A stretch of 64,000 bases of DNA. Origin: Occultella glacieicola. GTDB lineage: Bacteria; Actinomycetota; Actinomycetes; Actinomycetales; Beutenbergiaceae. Shown here piece by piece: positions 18,714 to 29,344 of this stretch. Location of the stretch: the NCBI RefSeq assembly GCF_004353825.1, contig NZ_SMNA01000001.1:310001-374000 (forward strand). Direction: 5' to 3'. The first letter of the stretch is position 1. Each line of letters opens with the position of its first letter. Below the pieces are notes generated by a model. It worked only from the letters and a program-made list of their open reading frames with translations, had not been told where the DNA came from and did no database searches. A program made the position numbers and the translations under genes.

Positions 18714-19949
18714 ATGGCGGCACGAACGACGGGGGCGGGTGCCTCGACCGGCCGGCCGGAGGACTGGGACCGGCTCCTGGCGCGCCGCCTCGCGACCCAC
18801 CGCCTGCTCGACCCGGAGCCGGCCGGAGCGGACCGCGCGCAGGCGATGACCGCCGTCGTCGATGCGATCCTGGGCGCGCACGCCCAGGTGATGGTGGCCG
18901 GTGAGACGTCGATCGGCCTGCGCGTGGACGGCGCGACCCGCTCCGACGTGCGCCACGCCGTCGAGGAGACGCGCACCCTCGTGAAGGCCCACGGCCCGCG
19001 GGGGACGGTGCATCTGCTCTCCGCCGACGGGCTGGCCCGGTGGGTCGGTGCGATGAGCTGGATCGGGGCCTCGGGCTCGACCCCTCCCGTCGCGATGCGG
19101 CTCACCCCGGAGCAGACCGAGACGGTCCTGGCGGCGCTCGGCACGGCCCTGGCCGGTGCCGAGCTGACCGTCGACGAACTCGACGAGGCAGTCATCGGGG
19201 CCACCGGACCGTGGGCCGGTGACCTGGTGATGCCGGCCTTCGGTGGCTACTGGCCGAGGTGGCGGCAGCTGATCGGCACCTCGGGTCATCGCGGCCTGCT
19301 CTGCTTCGGTCGGCCGCGGGGCCGGAAGGTGACGTACACGAGTCCGAGGACGTGGCTGCCCGGGTTCGATCCGCGGCCCGGGGCGCGCGCCGCCGTCGAC
19401 CTCGTGCACGCCTACCTGGCCGGGTACGGGCCGGCCACCGCCGCCGAGTTCGCGACCTGGCTGGCGATCCGGCCCGCCCGCGCCGTGGAGCTGTTCGCAC
19501 GCGCCGAGCAGGACCCGCGCCTGGTCCGGGTCGACCGGGTCGACCGGGTCGACCGGGGCGCTGCCGGCGTCGGCGTCGCCTGCCTGGACGTGGCCGACGC
19601 GCCGGACGTCGAGCCGGGAATGGGACAGGTCCGGCTGCTCCCGCTCTTCGACGCCTACGGGGTGGGCAGCCGGCCGAGGGAGCGGATCTTTCCGGGCCGG
19701 GCGTCCGAGCGGGCTCTCGCCGGCGGGCAGGCGGGGAACTTCCCGGTCGTGCTCGTCGACGGGGTGGTGGCCGGCGTCTGGCACCAGCGCCTGGCCGGCA
19801 AGCGGGTGCGGATCACGGTCGAGATGCTCGAGCCGCCCACGGCGGCGCGGCGCAACGCCGTCGAGGACCAGGTGGACCGGGTGGCCGCCGTGCTCGAGGC
19901 CACGCCGGACCTGACGTTCGGGGAGATCACCGTCGGCGCCCACGCCTGA
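18714..19949 (+). CDS. AlkZ-like (HTH_42) DNA glycosylase
   Basis: GAHAQ motif, HGPRGTVHL, YLAGYGPATAAEFATW, VRLLPLFDAY, VLVDGVVAGVW. Confidence 0.85.
   Translation: MAARTTGAGASTGRPEDWDRLLARRLATHRLLDPEPAGADRAQAMTAVVDAILGAHAQVMVAGETSIGLRVDGATRSDVRHAVEETRTLVKAHGPRGTVHLLSADGLARWVGAMSWIGASGSTPPVAMRLTPEQTETVLAALGTALAGAELTVDELDEAVIGATGPWAGDLVMPAFGGYWPRWRQLIGTSGHRGLLCFGRPRGRKVTYTSPRTWLPGFDPRPGARAAVDLVHAYLAGYGPATAAEFATWLAIRPARAVELFARAEQDPRLVRVDRVDRVDRGAAGVGVACLDVADAPDVEPGMGQVRLLPLFDAYGVGSRPRERIFPGRASERALAGGQAGNFPVVLVDGVVAGVWHQRLAGKRVRITVEMLEPPTAARRNAVEDQVDRVAAVLEATPDLTFGEITVGAHA
19526..19557 (+). repeat. In-frame 9-bp tandem repeat (CCGGGTCGA x3.5)
   Basis: Encodes RVDRVDRVDR in the AlkZ-like gene. 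Confidence 0.85.
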
Positions 19950-20776: not shown

Positions 20777-20843
20777 CCGGCCGGGGTCCTCACGCGGCCG
20801 CAACCCGGCCCCCGCACGCGGGGACCGGGCTGGGCGTGAGCGT

Positions 20844-22298
20844 TCAGGCCAGCCGGTTGCGCTGGGCGTTCTCGGTGTCGAGAAGCCCGTGCAGGTGACC
20901 GTCCGTGCCATCGAGGACGAACCCGGGGCGGCTCACCGAGTGGTTCTCGGTGCTCCGCTCATCGGTCCGGGTGCCGCTGTCGTCGGTGACGGCACCGGTG
21001 CTCTGCGTGCTCGAGGCGTCGGCGATCTCGGACGCGAAGCCCGAGTCTCCGATCGCGAACGGGAACGCGTAGCCGATCAGGTGCACGGAACTGCTGTCGG
21101 AACGGTCGGCGTCACCGGCCGAGGCCGAGGCGTCCGACCGGGTGTCGGTCCAGACCCAGGGCGCTCCGGTGACGTCGCCGGTCTGCCCGACGAACGCGGT
21201 GCGGGTGGAGTCCCACACGTGCTCCGTCGAGGTGGCGGTGCCCTCGTCGTCGGCGACGGTCGAGGTGGTGTGCCGCTCGCCGGTGGTGGCGGACTCACCC
21301 GCGGTGGTCAGGCCACCGAGGTGGAACGGTGCGCCCGCCACGATCGCGGTGTCGGACGCCGACGCCGAGGCGTCGACACCGTCGACCCCGCCCGCCTGGG
21401 TGGCGGCCGAGTCGGTGCTGTTCCAGAGCCCGGCCGCCGGCTCGAGGGCGAGGTCCAGTCCGTCGACGCCGATGGCGTTCGACGACGACTCCGAGACGGC
21501 CTCGGAGGTGGTGGCGGTTCGCTCGGAGTTCGTCACGCTCGACTCGGTCTCCCGCTCGGAGGAACGCTCGTCCGCAGCCGCGGCGGTGATCCCCTCGAAC
21601 GAGATCGGCGACGAGGCCTCGATCGCGGTCTGCGAGGAGGACTCGGCGCCGTCGACGCCGTGCTCGTCACCGGTGGAGGTGGCCGCCGACTCGCGGTCAC
21701 CGCTCAGGGCGGCGGTCGGGTCGATGTCGAGCTGGCCGACCTCGAGCGCACCACCGGTGGCGGAGGACTCCGACGTCGACTCGGTGGTCGACGCCGTGCC
21801 CTCGTCCGTGGTGGTCGCGGCCGACTCCTCGGAGCTGCTCTCCGACTGCTGCGCGCCGGTGACGGTGACGCCGCCGACGCTGATCGGGGCCTGCACCTCG
21901 GCGGCGGAACTCAGCGAGTCCTCCGTCGAGGCGCTGTCACCGGCCTCGTCGGACGAGGTCCAGCTCTCGGTGTCGAGCATCGCAGCCGGGTCGACCGCGA
22001 TCTCGCCGACGTCGATCCCGAGCTCGCTGTGCGAGGAGGACTCCTGCGCACTCGCGGTCTCGATGGTGTCGCCGTTCTCGTCGGTCTGTGACGAGGACTG
22101 CTGCTCCGAGGAGTGGTCCTCGGTCTCGATGCCGAGCGACAGTCCGCCCAGCTCGATGGGTGCGGCGATCGAGGACTCGGTGGAACTGTCCTGCTCGTGA
22201 CTGCCGGTGTCGTCGGCGTACGCGGCGAGCGAGCCGGCGAGCCAGAGCCCGCCCGCCAGTCCCGCGACGCCGAGGCTTCGTTGCATCCAGGTCTTCAT
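20844..22298 (-). CDS. Secreted acidic Ser/Thr/Glu-rich protein with five ~90-aa repeats; function unknown
   Basis: Signal peptide MKTWMQRSLGVAGLAGGLWLAGSLAAYA; repeat anchors APIELGGL/APISVGGV/SPISFEGI/APFHLGGL/FPFAIGDS spaced 91, 93, 93 and 89 aa. Confidence 0.8.
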   Translation of the reverse strand: MKTWMQRSLGVAGLAGGLWLAGSLAAYADDTGSHEQDSSTESSIAAPIELGGLSLGIETEDHSSEQQSSSQTDENGDTIETASAQESSSHSELGIDVGEIAVDPAAMLDTESWTSSDEAGDSASTEDSLSSAAEVQAPISVGGVTVTGAQQSESSSEESAATTTDEGTASTTESTSESSATGGALEVGQLDIDPTAALSGDRESAATSTGDEHGVDGAESSSQTAIEASSPISFEGITAAAADERSSERETESSVTNSERTATTSEAVSESSSNAIGVDGLDLALEPAAGLWNSTDSAATQAGGVDGVDASASASDTAIVAGAPFHLGGLTTAGESATTGERHTTSTVADDEGTATSTEHVWDSTRTAFVGQTGDVTGAPWVWTDTRSDASASAGDADRSDSSSVHLIGYAFPFAIGDSGFASEIADASSTQSTGAVTDDSGTRTDERSTENHSVSRPGFVLDGTDGHLHGLLDTENAQRNRLA

Positions 22299-22301
22299 GG
22301 T

Positions 22302-22388
22302 CTCTCTTCCGATAGGTGGGCAGCCGACGGTGGCCGGTCCGCCCGGGATGGTGCGCGGCGGTCGCCGGCACCGGGTTCGGAGCGAGAG
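22302..22388 (-). promoter_or_regulatory. Intergenic RNA stem pairing the post-stop sequence with the downstream SD
   Basis: mRNA 5' arm CUCUC-GC-UCCGA (22388-22377) pairs with UCGGA-A-GAGAG (22312-22302), which is the SD region of ATG 22298. Confidence 0.55.
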
Positions 22389-22391
22389 GGG

Positions 22392-23633
22392 TCAGTCCGG
22401 GGCGAAGCCCGGACGCGTGCTCAGTGGATCTGCGAGGAGGTCGTCCTCGCCACGGTCACCGGCCCCGAGCAGGGCCGGGACGGGAGTGGCTGCCGCCAGC
22501 ACCGCGTGCTCGGAGGAGGCGTGCACACCGCCGCTGGAGCCGAACGCCGAGGTGGGCGGCAGCGGGGCGGGCAGCGGCCGCGGCTGACCGTCGGCGGGTC
22601 CCGGACGGTCACCGGTGGGGGCCGAGCCGGCCGTGGTCCCGACGGTGCCCACGGTGCCCACGGTGCCCACGGTGCCCACGGTGCCCGCGGTGGGCGACGA
22701 GGAGGGTGCGACGGCGCCGGCCGGGTCCAGGATGGCGTCGTCCACGGTCGGTGCTGGGCCGGTGTCCGGACCCCCGACGGCGGCCGGGATCGTTCGCGAG
22801 GAGTCCTGCGGTGTGTCCGGGGTGCGCGGCGGGCTCGGCGTTGTCGGGCTCCCGGGGACGACTCCCGAGCCGGGCAGCAGCGGGTCGGTGATCGGGGCGA
22901 TGGCGTCGGTGACCGGGGCGAGTGCCCCCGTGATCGGTTCGACGGCGTCGACGACCGGGCCGAGCGCGGCCGTGATCGGGCGCAGGGCGTCGTTGACCGG
23001 CGCCAGAGCCCCGCCGGTGCTGCCGAGCACGGGCTCGACGACGGGAGCGATCGCCTCGACGACCGGCTCGGTGAGCGCGCCGGCCGAGGACGCGACGACG
23101 GGTTCGACGATCGTGTCGGTGACCGGCTCGACGACGGTGTCGGTGACCGGCTCGACGACGGTGTCGGTGACCGGCTCGACGACGGCGTCGGTGACGGGTT
23201 CGAGGACGGTGTCGGTGACGGGTTCGACGACCGTCTCCGTGACCGGTGGCACGACCGATTCGGCGACTGGTTCGACGACGGGCTCAACGACGGTCTCGGC
23301 GACCGGTTCGACGACGGCCTCGGTGACGGGTTCGACGACGGTCTCCGTGACCGGTGCCACGACGGTCTCGGCGACCGGTTCGGCCAGGGTCTCGGCCACG
23401 CTGGTGACCGGGTCGGTCACGGGCTGCCCGACCTCCTCGACGAGCCCGCCCAACAGGCCGGCGCCCTCGTCGCCCTCACCGTCGTCCGCGGCGGCCGGTC
23501 CGGCGAGGAGTACCCCGACGCCGATCGCCCCGCAGACCAGCAGCAGGCTCCGCAGCAGCAGGCGCAGCCATCGGGCGACGGCGACGTGGTGAGGGCGCGC
23601 GGGGGCCCGCTCGGCCATCACTGCCGAGGCCAT
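22392..23633 (-). CDS. Exported Pro/Val/Thr-rich repeat protein ending ...RPGFAPD
   Basis: GGGAGG SD before ATG 23633; Arg-rich N-region, hydrophobic core and PAAA-D cleavage site; EPVT(D/E)TVV octapeptide repeats; low-complexity linker. Confidence 0.75.
   Translation of the reverse strand: MASAVMAERAPARPHHVAVARWLRLLLRSLLLVCGAIGVGVLLAGPAAADDGEGDEGAGLLGGLVEEVGQPVTDPVTSVAETLAEPVAETVVAPVTETVVEPVTEAVVEPVAETVVEPVVEPVAESVVPPVTETVVEPVTDTVLEPVTDAVVEPVTDTVVEPVTDTVVEPVTDTIVEPVVASSAGALTEPVVEAIAPVVEPVLGSTGGALAPVNDALRPITAALGPVVDAVEPITGALAPVTDAIAPITDPLLPGSGVVPGSPTTPSPPRTPDTPQDSSRTIPAAVGGPDTGPAPTVDDAILDPAGAVAPSSSPTAGTVGTVGTVGTVGTVGTTAGSAPTGDRPGPADGQPRPLPAPLPPTSAFGSSGGVHASSEHAVLAAATPVPALLGAGDRGEDDLLADPLSTRPGFAPD
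22642..22686 (+). repeat. In-frame 9-bp tandem repeat (ACGGTGCCC x5)
   Basis: Five exact copies; encodes GTV repeats on the minus strand. Confidence 0.9.
23098..23426 (+). repeat. Degenerate 24-bp coding tandem repeat (about 12 copies)
   Basis: GTGTCGGTGACCGGCTCGACGACG exact at 23113, 23137 and 23161, with degenerate flanking copies. Confidence 0.85.
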
Positions 23634-23737
23634 CGGACCACCTCCCGTCTGGAACACCGACGAACATCCGCACCTCGTCCGTCACCACCCATTCGGAAGC
23701 CGGACAGGATCGGATGGGTGCCGATTCCCCGAGGGCA

Positions 23738-24664
23738 TCAGCCGCGCCCGGGCAGGTGGGTGCGCGCGGCCATCCGGGGTCCGCGCCGCGGCGGTGCCAC
23801 CCCGGCGGCCATCACGAGGCGTTGCACCCGGCCGCGATGCGGACGGAACGGTTCGAGCAGAACGGCCAGTTCGCCGTCGTCCACCGTTCTCCCGGTGAGC
23901 GCCCACCCGACGTTACGGGCGACGTGGTAGTCGCCGAAACTCACCGCGTCGGCGTCGCCGAACACGCGCGAGCGCACCTCCGCGCTGGTCCACACGCCCA
24001 CGCCCGAGAGCGAGAGCAGGGCCCGGTCGGCGTCCGCGGACGAGCCGCGGGCGAGTCGCTCCAGGGACGGCGCGACCCGCGCGGCGGCGACGATCGCGCG
24101 CGAGCGGGCCGGGTCGATGCCCAGGTGCAGCCACTCCCAGCTGGGGATCGCCGCGAGCGCGGCCGCCGCGGGCGGCGCCCGCAGACCATGGTTACCGGCG
24201 GGGCCGGGCGCGGGTTCGCCGTGGCGCTGGACGAGTCTGCGCCAGGACCCGAACGCCTCCGCCCCGGTGACCTTCTGCTCGATGACCGTCGGGACCAGCG
24301 CCTCCAGGACCAGGTGGGTACGGGTCAGGGGCAGGTGCGGGTGCCGACGGGCGAGCGGTGCGAGCGCCGGGTGCGCGGCCGGCTCGAACCCGGTGTCGTC
24401 GTCGAACGCGCCGAGCATCGCGGGGACGGCATCGAGGACCCACGCCGCGCCGTCGCCCCAGGCCAGCGCGTGCACCGGTGCGGCCGGCTCGTCCTGCTGC
24501 AGCCGGAGCGCCGCGGTCCCCCGGGGCGTGCGCACGCCGCGCCAGTAGGCGCCACCAGGCTCGCGTCGGAAGCACGGGTCGTACGCGCCGCGGCGCAGTG
24601 CCGACAGCGTCGGCCCCAGAGGGGTCGCCCGGACCGGCTGCCAGGTGCGCTCCAGCCCGCTCAC
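23738..24664 (-). CDS. HhH-GPD DNA-3-methyladenine glycosylase II family (AlkA-like)
   Basis: VIEQKVTG, LLSLSGVGVWT HhH, GDADAVSFGDYH, LLEPFRPHRGRV. Confidence 0.85.
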   Translation of the reverse strand: MSGLERTWQPVRATPLGPTLSALRRGAYDPCFRREPGGAYWRGVRTPRGTAALRLQQDEPAAPVHALAWGDGAAWVLDAVPAMLGAFDDDTGFEPAAHPALAPLARRHPHLPLTRTHLVLEALVPTVIEQKVTGAEAFGSWRRLVQRHGEPAPGPAGNHGLRAPPAAAALAAIPSWEWLHLGIDPARSRAIVAAARVAPSLERLARGSSADADRALLSLSGVGVWTSAEVRSRVFGDADAVSFGDYHVARNVGWALTGRTVDDGELAVLLEPFRPHRGRVQRLVMAAGVAPPRRGPRMAARTHLPGRG

Positions 24665-27874: not shown

Positions 27875-28498
27875 GTGACCGATCCTCGCCGTGGCCCGCT
27901 GCGCCTGCTGCGCGCGACCGCGGTGTCGGTGAGCGTCATCGGCCTCGCCCTCGGCGCGCACGTCGGTGCCGGCGGCAGCCTCGGGGACCTGCTCGTGGTG
28001 GCCGCCGCCGGGGCGTTCACGATGCTGGTCGCGTTCGTGGCCTGCGGGCGCCGCCTGCGGGCCGTCACCGTGCTGGCGCTCCTCGGCGCCGGTCAGGTTA
28101 CGCTGCACCACGTGTTCGCGAGCACGGCCGGACTCGGCGCAGTTCCCGGCTGCACCACCGCGGGCGCCCATACCCACGGCGCGGCCCTCGCCGAGGCCAT
28201 GCAGCACTGCGCACCCGCAGGCGGTGGGCACGCGCTCACCATGACGATGCTCGGCGCCCACCTGCTCGCGACCGTGATCAACGGCGCCCTGCTCTGGCGC
28301 GGGGACCGGGCACTGTTCGCGCTCTGGACCTGGTTGACGCCGTTGCTCACGGTGTTGTCCGAGCGGGTCCTCCCGACGCCCGCGGCAGTCGGCCGGGGCC
28401 GTCGCAGGTCCCCGACACCGCGACGCCCCGACGGGCGGATCGTCTGGTTGGACCTTGCCCCACGACGGGGACCACCCCTGGCGCGCGCCGCCGCCTGA
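27875..28498 (+). CDS. His/Cys/Met-rich membrane protein with C-terminal RRGPP (candidate arrest leader)
   Basis: About 4 TM; AHVGAGG, LHHVF, GCTTAGAHTHG, MQHC..GHALTMTMLGAH; ends DLAPRRGPPLARAAA. Confidence 0.7.
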   Translation: MTDPRRGPLRLLRATAVSVSVIGLALGAHVGAGGSLGDLLVVAAAGAFTMLVAFVACGRRLRAVTVLALLGAGQVTLHHVFASTAGLGAVPGCTTAGAHTHGAALAEAMQHCAPAGGGHALTMTMLGAHLLATVINGALLWRGDRALFALWTWLTPLLTVLSERVLPTPAAVGRGRRRSPTPRRPDGRIVWLDLAPRRGPPLARAAA

Positions 28499-28603: not shown

Positions 28604-29344
28604 ATGTCCCTGTCCACAGCCACACTCCCGGCCTCAGCGGCCTCAGCGGCCTCAGCGGCCTCAGCGGCACAGAATGGCACGACCCCGCACCGAGCAGCAC
28701 CACGCCGAACGGCATCCCGAGCGGCACGGGGCGTGCGCGCCCTGGCGACGATCGCCGTCGCCGGCCTCCTCGGCCTGACCCTTCACGTGAGCGCCGCCCA
28801 GGCGCACGACACCCTGGTCTCCTCCGCCCCGGCGGAGGGGGAGACCCTCACCGTGGCCCCCACGGAGGTCCGGCTCACGTTCAACAACGAGATCCTCGAC
28901 CTGAACGCCGCCATCGTCCTGACCGACCCCGACGGCGCCGTGCTGACCGAGGAGCCGCCGGTCGTCGACGGCGCCGACGTGGCACTGCCAGTGCCCGACG
29001 GCGTACCCGCCGGCGTCTGGACGGTCACCTGGCGGGTCGTCTCCTCCGACGGCCACCCGATCTCCGGCACGTACGACTTCACCGTGGACACGCCCGCCGA
29101 GGCCACCACGACGCCGGCGCAGCCCACGGAGACCACCGAGCCGACCGAGGCCGTGACCACCGACGACGCCGAGCCCGCCGCGTCGGACGCGCCGTCGGAG
29201 TCCGCCTCGCCCGCGGACGAGGATGCGGACGATGGCGGATCCGGACCCGGCGAGATCATCGCCTTCGTGGCCCTCGCCCTGGCCGTGATCGGGGTGGCCG
29301 CCGCGCTGGTGGTACGCCGGATGCGGTCGGGAGACCGCCCCTGA
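28604..29344 (+). CDS. copC: CopC copper-binding protein with C-terminal TM anchor
   Basis: AQA|HDTLVSSAPAEGETL (His1), LTFNNEI, WRVVSSDGHPISG. Confidence 0.88.
   Translation: MSLSTATLPASAASAASAASAAQNGTTPHRAAPRRTASRAARGVRALATIAVAGLLGLTLHVSAAQAHDTLVSSAPAEGETLTVAPTEVRLTFNNEILDLNAAIVLTDPDGAVLTEEPPVVDGADVALPVPDGVPAGVWTVTWRVVSSDGHPISGTYDFTVDTPAEATTTPAQPTETTEPTEAVTTDDAEPAASDAPSESASPADEDADDGGSGPGEIIAFVALALAVIGVAAALVVRRMRSGDRP
28629..28668 (+). repeat. In-frame 9-bp tandem repeat (CGGCCTCAG x4.4)
   Basis: Encodes ASAASAASAASA in the CopC N-terminal extension. Confidence 0.9.

Follow-up and report, generated by a model that had tools for sequence, protein, structure and literature searches.

The leader-cargo locus of Occultella glacieicola

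We analysed a window of 64,000 nucleotides (nt) from the actinomycete Occultella glacieicola (assembly GCF_004353825.1, contig NZ_SMNA01000001.1, positions 310,001-374,000; coordinates below are those of the window). Two genes on its minus strand, a leader gene A and a cargo gene B, encode predicted secreted proteins. The leader ends in a short tail directly at its stop codon, and the Shine-Dalgarno (SD) sequence of the cargo is predicted to pair with bases just past that stop. Comparison of related loci showed that the tail is conserved as a peptide, that the SD-occluding stem co-varies, and that the design is reused with different cargos. Among upstream-leader switches, this one has a new stop-adjacent motif and a new target class, and the arrangement is real, conserved and wider than the initial annotation had reported. 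The features of the locus, in the direction of transcription, are the following.

23692..23717, minus strand: bipartite motif resembling a promoter, CCATCC-N15-CCGAA, which lies 58 nt ahead of the leader ATG; sole match in the window, with 0.05 expected
23639..23646, minus strand: leader Shine-Dalgarno sequence GGGAGGTG, called from sequence; the leader starts of relatives are preceded by a similar one
22392..23633, minus strand: leader gene A, 413 amino acids (aa), with a signal peptide, a long Pro/Val/Thr spacer and the tail DLLADPLSTRPGFAPD-TGA
23487..23633, minus strand: leader residues 1-49, a predicted signal peptide of the Sec type with the site GPAAA/DD (hydropathy and motif)
22884..23396, minus strand: spacer region with tandem repeats of two types, EPVTDTVV with a 24-nt unit and APVTDAL with a 21-nt unit (Tandem Repeats Finder)
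22642..22692, minus strand: GTV repeat, 9 nt x 5.7, locus-specific (Tandem Repeats Finder)
22392..22415, minus strand: conserved tail R-P-G-F-A-P-D-TGA, a candidate slow-termination motif (tail conservation in 18 B-family loci)
22377..22388, minus strand: 5' arm of the closing stem (anti-SD), 3-14 nt past the stop (fold; cognate versus permuted pairing, 0/10000)
22318..22372, minus strand: two inner GC hairpins of a three-way junction, 22372-22350 and 22344-22318 (fold)
22302..22312, minus strand: 3' arm, which is the cargo ribosome-binding site (RBS) UCGGAAGAGAG, paired in the fold (folding)
20844..22298, minus strand: cargo gene B, 484 aa, secreted, Ser/Thr/Glu-rich, with five repeats of ~88 aa and no sortase signal
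22215..22298, minus strand: predicted signal peptide of the cargo, residues 1-28 (hydropathy and motif), homologous to that of chaplin-repeat cargos
22193-21933 (R1), 21923-21660 (R2), 21650-21390 (R3), 21374-21111 (R4) and 21101-20847 (R5), minus strand: the cargo repeats
20801..20832, minus strand: GC hairpin past the cargo stop, a probable terminator shared with the convergent gene (z only -1.5)

The initial annotation had described two co-oriented genes 93 nt apart, and both open reading frames (ORFs) indeed lie on the minus strand with a gap of 93 nt (22299-22391). The signal peptides that it assigned to both proteins were recovered by hydropathy and motif, and each consists of a basic n-region followed by a hydrophobic segment and an AxA/DD site. 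Its description of the upstream protein as low in complexity also held, as V, A, P, T, G and E make up 77% of leader residues 49-385 and the EPVTDTVV and GTV repeats are both present; the GTV repeat is missing from the leaders of three close relatives. The SD-pairing stem that it placed 3 nt past the leader stop is present exactly so, enclosing two hairpins, and the five repeats that it saw in the cargo are supported by all 10 profile-profile comparisons between them. Neither protein matched a Pfam or NCBIfam family above cut-off. The Atlas model of the leader had a predicted template modelling score (pTM) of 0.15, and its look-alikes were unnamed Actinomycetota clusters (0.93-0.94).

The leader tail and its cargos

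Loci were picked by downstream cargo homology alone, and the upstream ORF was then inspected. The B family comprised 18 loci, namely four from 61 relatives (this genome included), ten from 33 genome pattern matches and four from 38 metagenome matches. The other matches lacked a B gene, and two entries, L128 and L129, were dropped as duplicates of L001 and L070. The genome pattern matches include Nocardioides, Kribbella, Phycicoccus and Aeromicrobium. An ORF ending in P[DG]-stop lies 64-158 nt upstream of the cargo in all 18 loci. For the background, we took the 2188 long SD-bearing ORFs of this genome; an ORF end of the PD-stop type lay within 60-160 nt in 7 cases and one of the P[DGA]-stop type in 100. 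The locus counts describe spread and are no test statistic, because kin are not independent.

Because P[DGA]-stop was the pattern used to call leaders, the invariance of position -2 is definitional, which applies neither to the fraction of cargo loci with a leader nor to positions -7 to -3. In the B family, R(-7) was found in 17/18 loci with four codons in use, P(-6) in all 18 with three codons, and G(-5) in 15/18 with four codons; positions 1-2 of these codons are fixed and position 3 is free. Between distant pairs, the last eight leader residues are identical at 5-8/8 positions, while residues -30 to -9 drop to 2-5/22. The freedom of the third codon position and the conservation of the last eight residues therefore indicate that selection acts on the tail peptide. 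The spacer drifts in length and sequence, and a signal-like N-terminus (a hydrophobic segment and an AxA-type site, by hydropathy) was present in all 17 complete B-family leaders. The tail consensus is [R/Q/D]-P-G-x-[S/T/A]-P-D-stop. The stop codon is UGA in 59 of 66 leaders, and residue -4 in these 66 is V in 29, T in 11, S in 11, F in 10 and I in 3.

Searches with the tail itself differed in specificity. The tail alone gave no match against the protein collection at E up to 10. The DNA pattern PG[FSTI][AST]PD-TGA/TAA matched 22 times in 301 genomes, as compared to 6 times in a reversed control, and only four of the 22 were true leaders (L005, L006, L020 and L021); short-motif searches therefore return mostly noise. 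A tail profile gave 10 matches with E <1e-4, each at a known or new leader, and it is specific only below about 1e-4; among the 20 weaker matches examined, none had a P[DGA]-stop ending. A single-protein search of the genome contigs found no relative.

The arrangement extends beyond the B family. PF03777 matches were found in 25 of the 301 order genomes, and four of them were dropped as apparent off-frame matches without a signal-peptide start. In the resulting chaplin-repeat loci, a P[DGA]-stop ORF lies 80-123 nt upstream in 21/21. The link of '-PD' ORFs to chaplin-like genes, which the initial annotation had put forward, thus proved correct for every chaplin-repeat gene in the set. A third group, with weak ChpA-C matches, was found in 48/61 genomes of family f70, which we take to be Pseudonocardiaceae-like. 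It comprised 30 loci, one of them mis-anchored, and 27 of the other 29 carry a leader 123-247 nt upstream, mostly ending in QPG[VT]TPD-TGA; tail conservation is the strongest of all groups there.

A profile built on the signal peptide that the cargos share matched 92/401 genomes of the class. Sixteen further loci were examined, ten of them with leaders (tails such as ILEFPG, DIPVSPA and DDPSFSPD); the six without a leader were weak unrelated matches and one classic long chaplin. Such a leader is lacking before classic chaplins of either length (L134/L167 and L227), a short-plus-long pair included. In family f45, presumably Streptomyces-like, leaders ending in ILEFPG, DIPVSPA or DIPVFPG precede secreted low-complexity proteins (L215-L217, L220, L223 and L226). 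These cargos start with M[NH]KN[IM]RRS, 106-293 nt past the leader, and represent a further cargo type.

This genome contains a second system (L166; G000:C21:184885-187767, plus strand), in which an EPV-repeat leader ending in DIPVSPG is followed, after an 84-nt gap with a spacer z of -2.3, by a chaplin-like repeat protein of 499 aa; this protein has an LAETG anchor and goes unrecognised by Pfam. The occurrence of one leader design before cargos with unrelated mature parts, twice in one genome, is more readily explained by a generic role in cis than by binding to one specific partner.

Cargo B belongs to a so far unannotated family of five-repeat β-sheet proteins. All 10 pairs of its repeats had profile-profile probabilities of 97-99% (E 2.8e-10 to 2.4e-20), and the E-value of each pair was better than that of its control with reversed sequence by 6 or more orders of magnitude; the best reversed control reached E 2.2e-8, and composition therefore contributes to these scores. 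At 90% clustering there were five close relatives, two of them named (from Pseudactinotalea and Occultella), and the B profile collected 35 clusters at 50% identity, Cellulomonas and Nocardioides proteins included. Atlas searches returned unnamed clusters only. Repeat number varies among the homologs around the usual five, from about 394 aa with four repeats (L072, L082 and L089) to 581-586 aa with six (L081 and L106). The homolog in the same-genus locus L004 (G001) ends at 466 aa, 18 residues early, and a stretch similar to the usual C-terminus is encoded after it in a different frame.

AlphaFold2 with 31 sequences predicted about 20 long antiparallel strands in B (predicted local distance difference test score, pLDDT, 79; pTM 0.62), and with 6 sequences the scores were 69 and 0.57. 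The strands, of about 20 residues each, have two polar faces, which speaks against insertion into a membrane. Structure searches gave loose β-barrel matches, the best with a Z of 14.5 and a root mean square deviation of 12.9 Å over 228 residues, and Foldseek gave no hit at E <=1e-3, although a missing match is no evidence of a new fold. The model suggests that B is a water-exposed sheet that may self-assemble, and not a membrane pore; most likely, B is secreted to the surface or matrix and forms sheets or fibres there.

The initial annotation had stated that the cargo is not a chaplin, and we agree. Neither B nor three of its homologs had any Pfam hit, PF03777 (ChpA-C) included, and the profile-profile probability of the B repeat against 82 pooled chaplin-like repeats was 7.9%, over 16 columns. 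B contains no Cys, GN motifs or sortase signal. The ChpA-C domain, GN motifs, cysteines (present in some) and sortase anchor described for chaplins (PMC13251363) are absent from it. Nevertheless, B and the chaplins share secreted β-rich repeats and a faint 'AP[VI]x[IL]GG' echo, and the signal peptide of B is homologous to that of chaplin-repeat proteins, as judged from sequence: the B-family profile matches chaplin-repeat genes at residues 1-50 only, with E down to 2.2e-7.

The intergenic stem and the cargo ribosome-binding site

The 93-nt gap folds into a three-way junction of -49.6 kcal/mol (z -4.5), and none of 200 shuffled sequences was as stable. CUCUC (22388-22384) pairs with GAGAG (22306-22302) and UCCGA (22381-22377) with UCGGA (22312-22308), and two hairpins are enclosed between them. 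No Rfam family reached its gathering score in this region or in 20 related loci. An alternative pairing between the tail codons and the first cargo codons, which would extend the closing stem, is possible at this locus (22280-22420, minus strand) and at L004. This alternative pairing is probably not general, because L002 and L003 fold differently there.

In the B family, cognate arms pair at -14.1 kcal/mol and permuted arms at -9.1 kcal/mol (0/10000), and a control window was non-significant; in the 13 dereplicated loci the values were -13.8 and -9.0 kcal/mol. The base pairs of the stem differ between genera while the pairing persists. The SD region pairs with the stop-proximal arm in 16/18 minimum-energy folds, and the two inner hairpins are present in 15/18 loci. 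Chaplin loci gave -21.1 kcal/mol for cognate and -15.1 kcal/mol for permuted arms, in a window that includes the tail codons and was picked after the first duplex window (-3..+17) had shown no stem (1276/10000). The initial annotation had staked its reading on conservation of both tail and stem. The two are conserved, with co-variation, in B-family and chaplin loci, whereas the third family keeps the tail without a predicted stop-proximal stem (0/27).

We modelled the effect of a ribosome standing at the leader stop, which had been proposed to release the cargo RBS. At this locus the modelled cost of opening the RBS falls from 10.2 to 6.5, 4.9 or 2.5 kcal/mol depending on the footprint edge, in agreement with that proposal, and a control footprint had no effect. 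With a footprint to stop+10, the cost is cut by at least 3 kcal/mol in 12/18 B-family and 17/21 chaplin loci, as opposed to 0/18 and 3/21 with the control footprint. On these models, coupling of the two genes through the stem appears very probable.

The gap also bears on the idea that UGA readthrough or a frameshift yields a leader-cargo fusion. The 93-nt gap here is in frame and stop-free, and the leader stop is mostly UGA and is followed by structure, as would suit recoding. However, each cargo has an SD and a signal peptide of its own, and the gaps fall in frames 0/1/2 in 8/4/6 B-family, 2/4/15 chaplin and 13/9/5 third-group loci. Gap length modulo 3 is not conserved, and a readthrough fusion was therefore rejected; we regard recoding as very improbable.

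The promoter-like motif before the leader has the form that we take to be the mycobacterial SigK consensus. In a loosened form it precedes 14/16 of the other scorable B-family leaders, a count that is partly circular because the motif was derived from B-family loci, and it precedes 0/11 chaplin-group and 0/23 third-group leaders. The strict motif also lies 48 nt before the sigK-rskA pair of this genome, independently of how the motif was derived, and the sigK product scores 251.8 bits with NF007228 (cut-off 226). The leader promoter is thus probably of the SigK type, SigK being an extracytoplasmic function (ECF) sigma factor of group ECF19. No copy of this motif lies between leader and cargo in any of the 18 B-family loci, in line with a downstream gene that has no promoter of its own, on which the coupling reading had been made to depend. 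The sigK-rskA pair lies at G000:C23:90735-92322 (plus strand, L228), and a second RskA-domain gene is on C20. SigK/RskA is described in PMC7509140, whose accessible part does not give the consensus.

We propose the following mechanism. Leader and cargo would form a two-gene operon transcribed from the SigK-like promoter before the leader. By default, the cargo RBS would be paired with the bases directly past the leader stop. Folding models suggest that a ribosome reaching this stop covers the 5' arm and frees the RBS, and that the cargo would be translated only if the leader is translated to its end. The [R/Q/D]-P-G-x-[S/T/A]-P-D-stop peptide may slow termination and so prolong the open period; such a peptide-dependent pause at the leader tail is probable. 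The leader signal peptide would bring the complex to the Sec translocon, and an aggregation-prone β-rich surface protein could thus be started at the membrane, possibly in step with export. This last step is the least certain, and regulation of the cargo by export status is a doubtful part of the scheme.

Weighing slow termination against known leaders and other readings

The best explanation of the whole, with slightly better than even prospects, is a stem-coupled operon with slow Pro-Asp termination and a Sec-placed leader. Components of it have been reported elsewhere. In Escherichia coli, a C-terminal Pro-Asp was described as sufficient for SsrA tagging, with 'data not shown' there, and Ala-Lys added to GalE abolished its C-terminal tagging (PMC2998420). 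Stop-dependent arrest leaders exist before sec genes, and secDF2 induction is mediated by a stem (PMC10987492).

Several observations weigh against this explanation. The codon of Pro(-2) is CCY (CCC or CCU) in 61/66 leaders, as compared to 43% in leader bodies and 32% genome-wide, and a pure peptide model does not predict such a nucleotide-level bias. The P-G..P-D codons are able to form a small hairpin in folds. Protein ends in PD are not depleted in the O. glacieicola genome (14 observed, 14.4 expected), whereas those in PP are (2 observed, 19.2 expected), and PD-stop alone is therefore no strong stall. The distance from signal to tail is long, 216-368 aa in B-family leaders. L070 and L081 lack the stem, and RNAalifold on a sequence-only MAFFT alignment found no consensus pairs, with the stems out of register; because MAFFT misregisters the stems, the alignment-free comparison of cognate and permuted pairing and the per-locus folds were used. 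The register of the anti-SD also differs: it lies past the stop in the B family and in the S-P-D codons themselves in chaplin loci, where the tail is therefore partly explained by RNA. Furthermore, the third family shows no drop in opening cost (0/27 loci) and no predicted stop-proximal SD stem, its cognate-versus-permuted tests were non-significant, and its control window (-33..-13) scored 14/10000, which is unexplained.

The tolerance of PD ends in the genome, the CCY bias and the chaplin-locus S-P-D codons that encode the anti-SD would also suit plain coupling with no regulated pause. Here the leader would be a secreted partner of the cargo (a chaperone, nucleator or matrix component), the stem would only set stoichiometry, and the tail would be kept for a post-export role or partly as RNA. 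Such a role is in keeping with the large leader (about 260-410 aa), with the EPV/KPV-type repeats retained in most B-family loci, and with a leader body identity that stays at 28-58% in pairs, albeit inflated by low complexity. However, the same tail precedes cargos with unrelated mature parts, it always ends exactly at the stop in the tail-profile matches, and its last eight residues persist while the spacer drifts. In addition, the B-family tail is conserved although its codons do not co-vary with the SD (3276/10000). We consider plain coupling rather unlikely.

The third family invites a different reading, in which the paused ribosome acts on transcription or mRNA stability by shielding a C-rich structured spacer from Rho or a nuclease, with SD occlusion secondary and limited to some lineages. 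The attenuation mechanism of TnaC is the model for this kind of shielding. The structured spacers of 123-247 nt in the third family, combined with the strongest tail conservation and no modelled SD coupling, agree with it, as does the C-richness of the spacers in all groups (median C/G 1.3-1.6). In the present locus and the B family, however, pairing of the SD with the stop-proximal arm is specific and shows co-variation, and no terminator-like site was called in the gap. Attenuation is decidedly unlikely in our judgement.

Many third-family spacers (L169-L198) carry a small CCC-GNAA-GGG hairpin directly before the SD, and a conserved-looking GGGUGGCC...GGCCACCC stem is found in these spacers as well. 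The hairpin and the stem are possibly a structured RNA element of their own.

Stem-coupled slow termination resembles the substrates that monitor Sec and YidC. These were screened for by a sec/yidC target, an export signal, a spacer of >30 aa and a conserved C-terminus (PMC10987492); the leader here has the last three, and its target is not a sec/yidC gene. SecM-secA, MifM-yidC2, VemP and ApcA/ApdA/ApdP likewise combine an unannotated upstream ORF with these three features and an SD-masking stem, and such a stem is predicted at this locus, in the same 16/18 B-family folds and in most chaplin loci, but in 0/27 of the third family. However, those monitors target secA, secDF and yidC, whereas secreted repeat proteins follow in all groups here. 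The median distance from signal to motif is 54-133 aa for MifM, SecM and VemP (PMC10987492), as opposed to spacers of 216-368 aa in leaders of 260-410 aa, which also have no RAPP-like motif and for which arrest is proposed. The SecM/MifM-like layout drawn in the initial annotation thus stands as regards signal, spacer, conserved C-terminus and SD stem, and departs from those systems in its target and its much longer spacer. The leader works like a monitoring substrate but is no member of that family.

Other arrest leaders share single traits. As in the NSP-stop/NAP-stop termination-arrest leaders, the conserved motif abuts the stop, and arrest here would be at termination. Those leaders have Pro at -1 and occur in Bacteroidota or Firmicutes, whereas here position -2 holds the Pro and position -1 an Asp, replaced in some leaders by Gly or Ala, and the hosts are actinomycetes with different target genes; the final triplet N-[S/A]-P (motif according to PMC10987492) was not found, as the tails end in x-P-D/G/A-stop. 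RAPP/RGPP leaders, including CruR and a set from S. lividans, precede genes other than sec and need an Arg three residues before the A-site codon (PMC12992588). They likewise show that signal-bearing arrest leaders control diverse actinomycete genes, but the R-[A/G]-P-[P/G] core with its essential Arg is absent here: the equivalent position is -4, with no Arg among the residues listed for it. The Pro-Asp pause of E. coli GalE involves the same last two residues and tagging at the stop, although that pause is incidental: GalE has neither a regulatory leader nor a stem, and no conserved R-P-G precedes its Pro-Asp (PMC2998420).

The leader is undescribed in the literature searched, which included the accessible parts of the chaplin papers PMC4255298, PMC13251363 and PMC8166509; coverage of subscription journals was thin, and an earlier mention is possible. 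A whole-word search of the supplements of PMC10987492 did not find it, although motifs inside sequences would escape such a search, and the word 'chaplin' does not occur in the accessible main text of PMC12992588, the supplements lying outside that search. Earlier screens began from sec/yidC genes or RAPP-like motifs, and therefore could not find the leader here.

The export machinery itself is the target of feedback by the export-sensing arrest peptides known so far. Here one leader design serves three or more groups of cargos, some chaplin-like and some unrelated, and it recurs in several families of actinobacteria. Its anti-SD sits in the tail codons (chaplin loci), past the stop (B family) or nowhere (third family), so that effects of the peptide and of the RNA can be told apart. 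A real pause would show a way in which bacteria may keep the synthesis of self-assembling β proteins from taking place far from the translocon, would give the Pro-Asp termination pause noted in E. coli a natural regulatory use, and would offer a portable part for secretion-coupled expression in actinomycetes. We put forward tentatively, with prospects somewhat short of even, that an undescribed family of termination-arrest leaders, made up of a signal peptide, a long Pro/Val spacer and PGxxPD-stop, controls throughout the class Actinomycetes whether surface proteins that form fibres or amyloid are translated, and ties their synthesis to engagement of the Sec translocon. If true, the family would be an export checkpoint on the substrate and not on the machinery, and this locus would place a new family of secreted single-layer β-sheet proteins under a SigK-type promoter.

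Outside the two genes, no sigma-70 promoter and no U-tract terminator were found at the locus, and inverted repeats like the hairpin at 20801..20832 follow the cargo genes of several relatives. The flanks carry a weak DNA-3-methyladenine glycosylase-like ORF (23738-24664, minus strand) and an AlkZ-like glycosylase gene (18714-19949, plus strand). Flanking genes are not conserved past the genus, and the downstream neighbours are kept solely in L004. Elsewhere in the window, a 207-aa membrane protein ending in ...LAPRRGPPLARAAA (27875-28498, plus strand) lies 105 nt before a gene with a CopC domain (28604-29344, plus strand; PF04234), and the spacer between them is structured (z -2.7). The former resembles an arrest leader of the RGPP type, placed ahead of a gene for copper resistance; this kind is described in PMC12992588.

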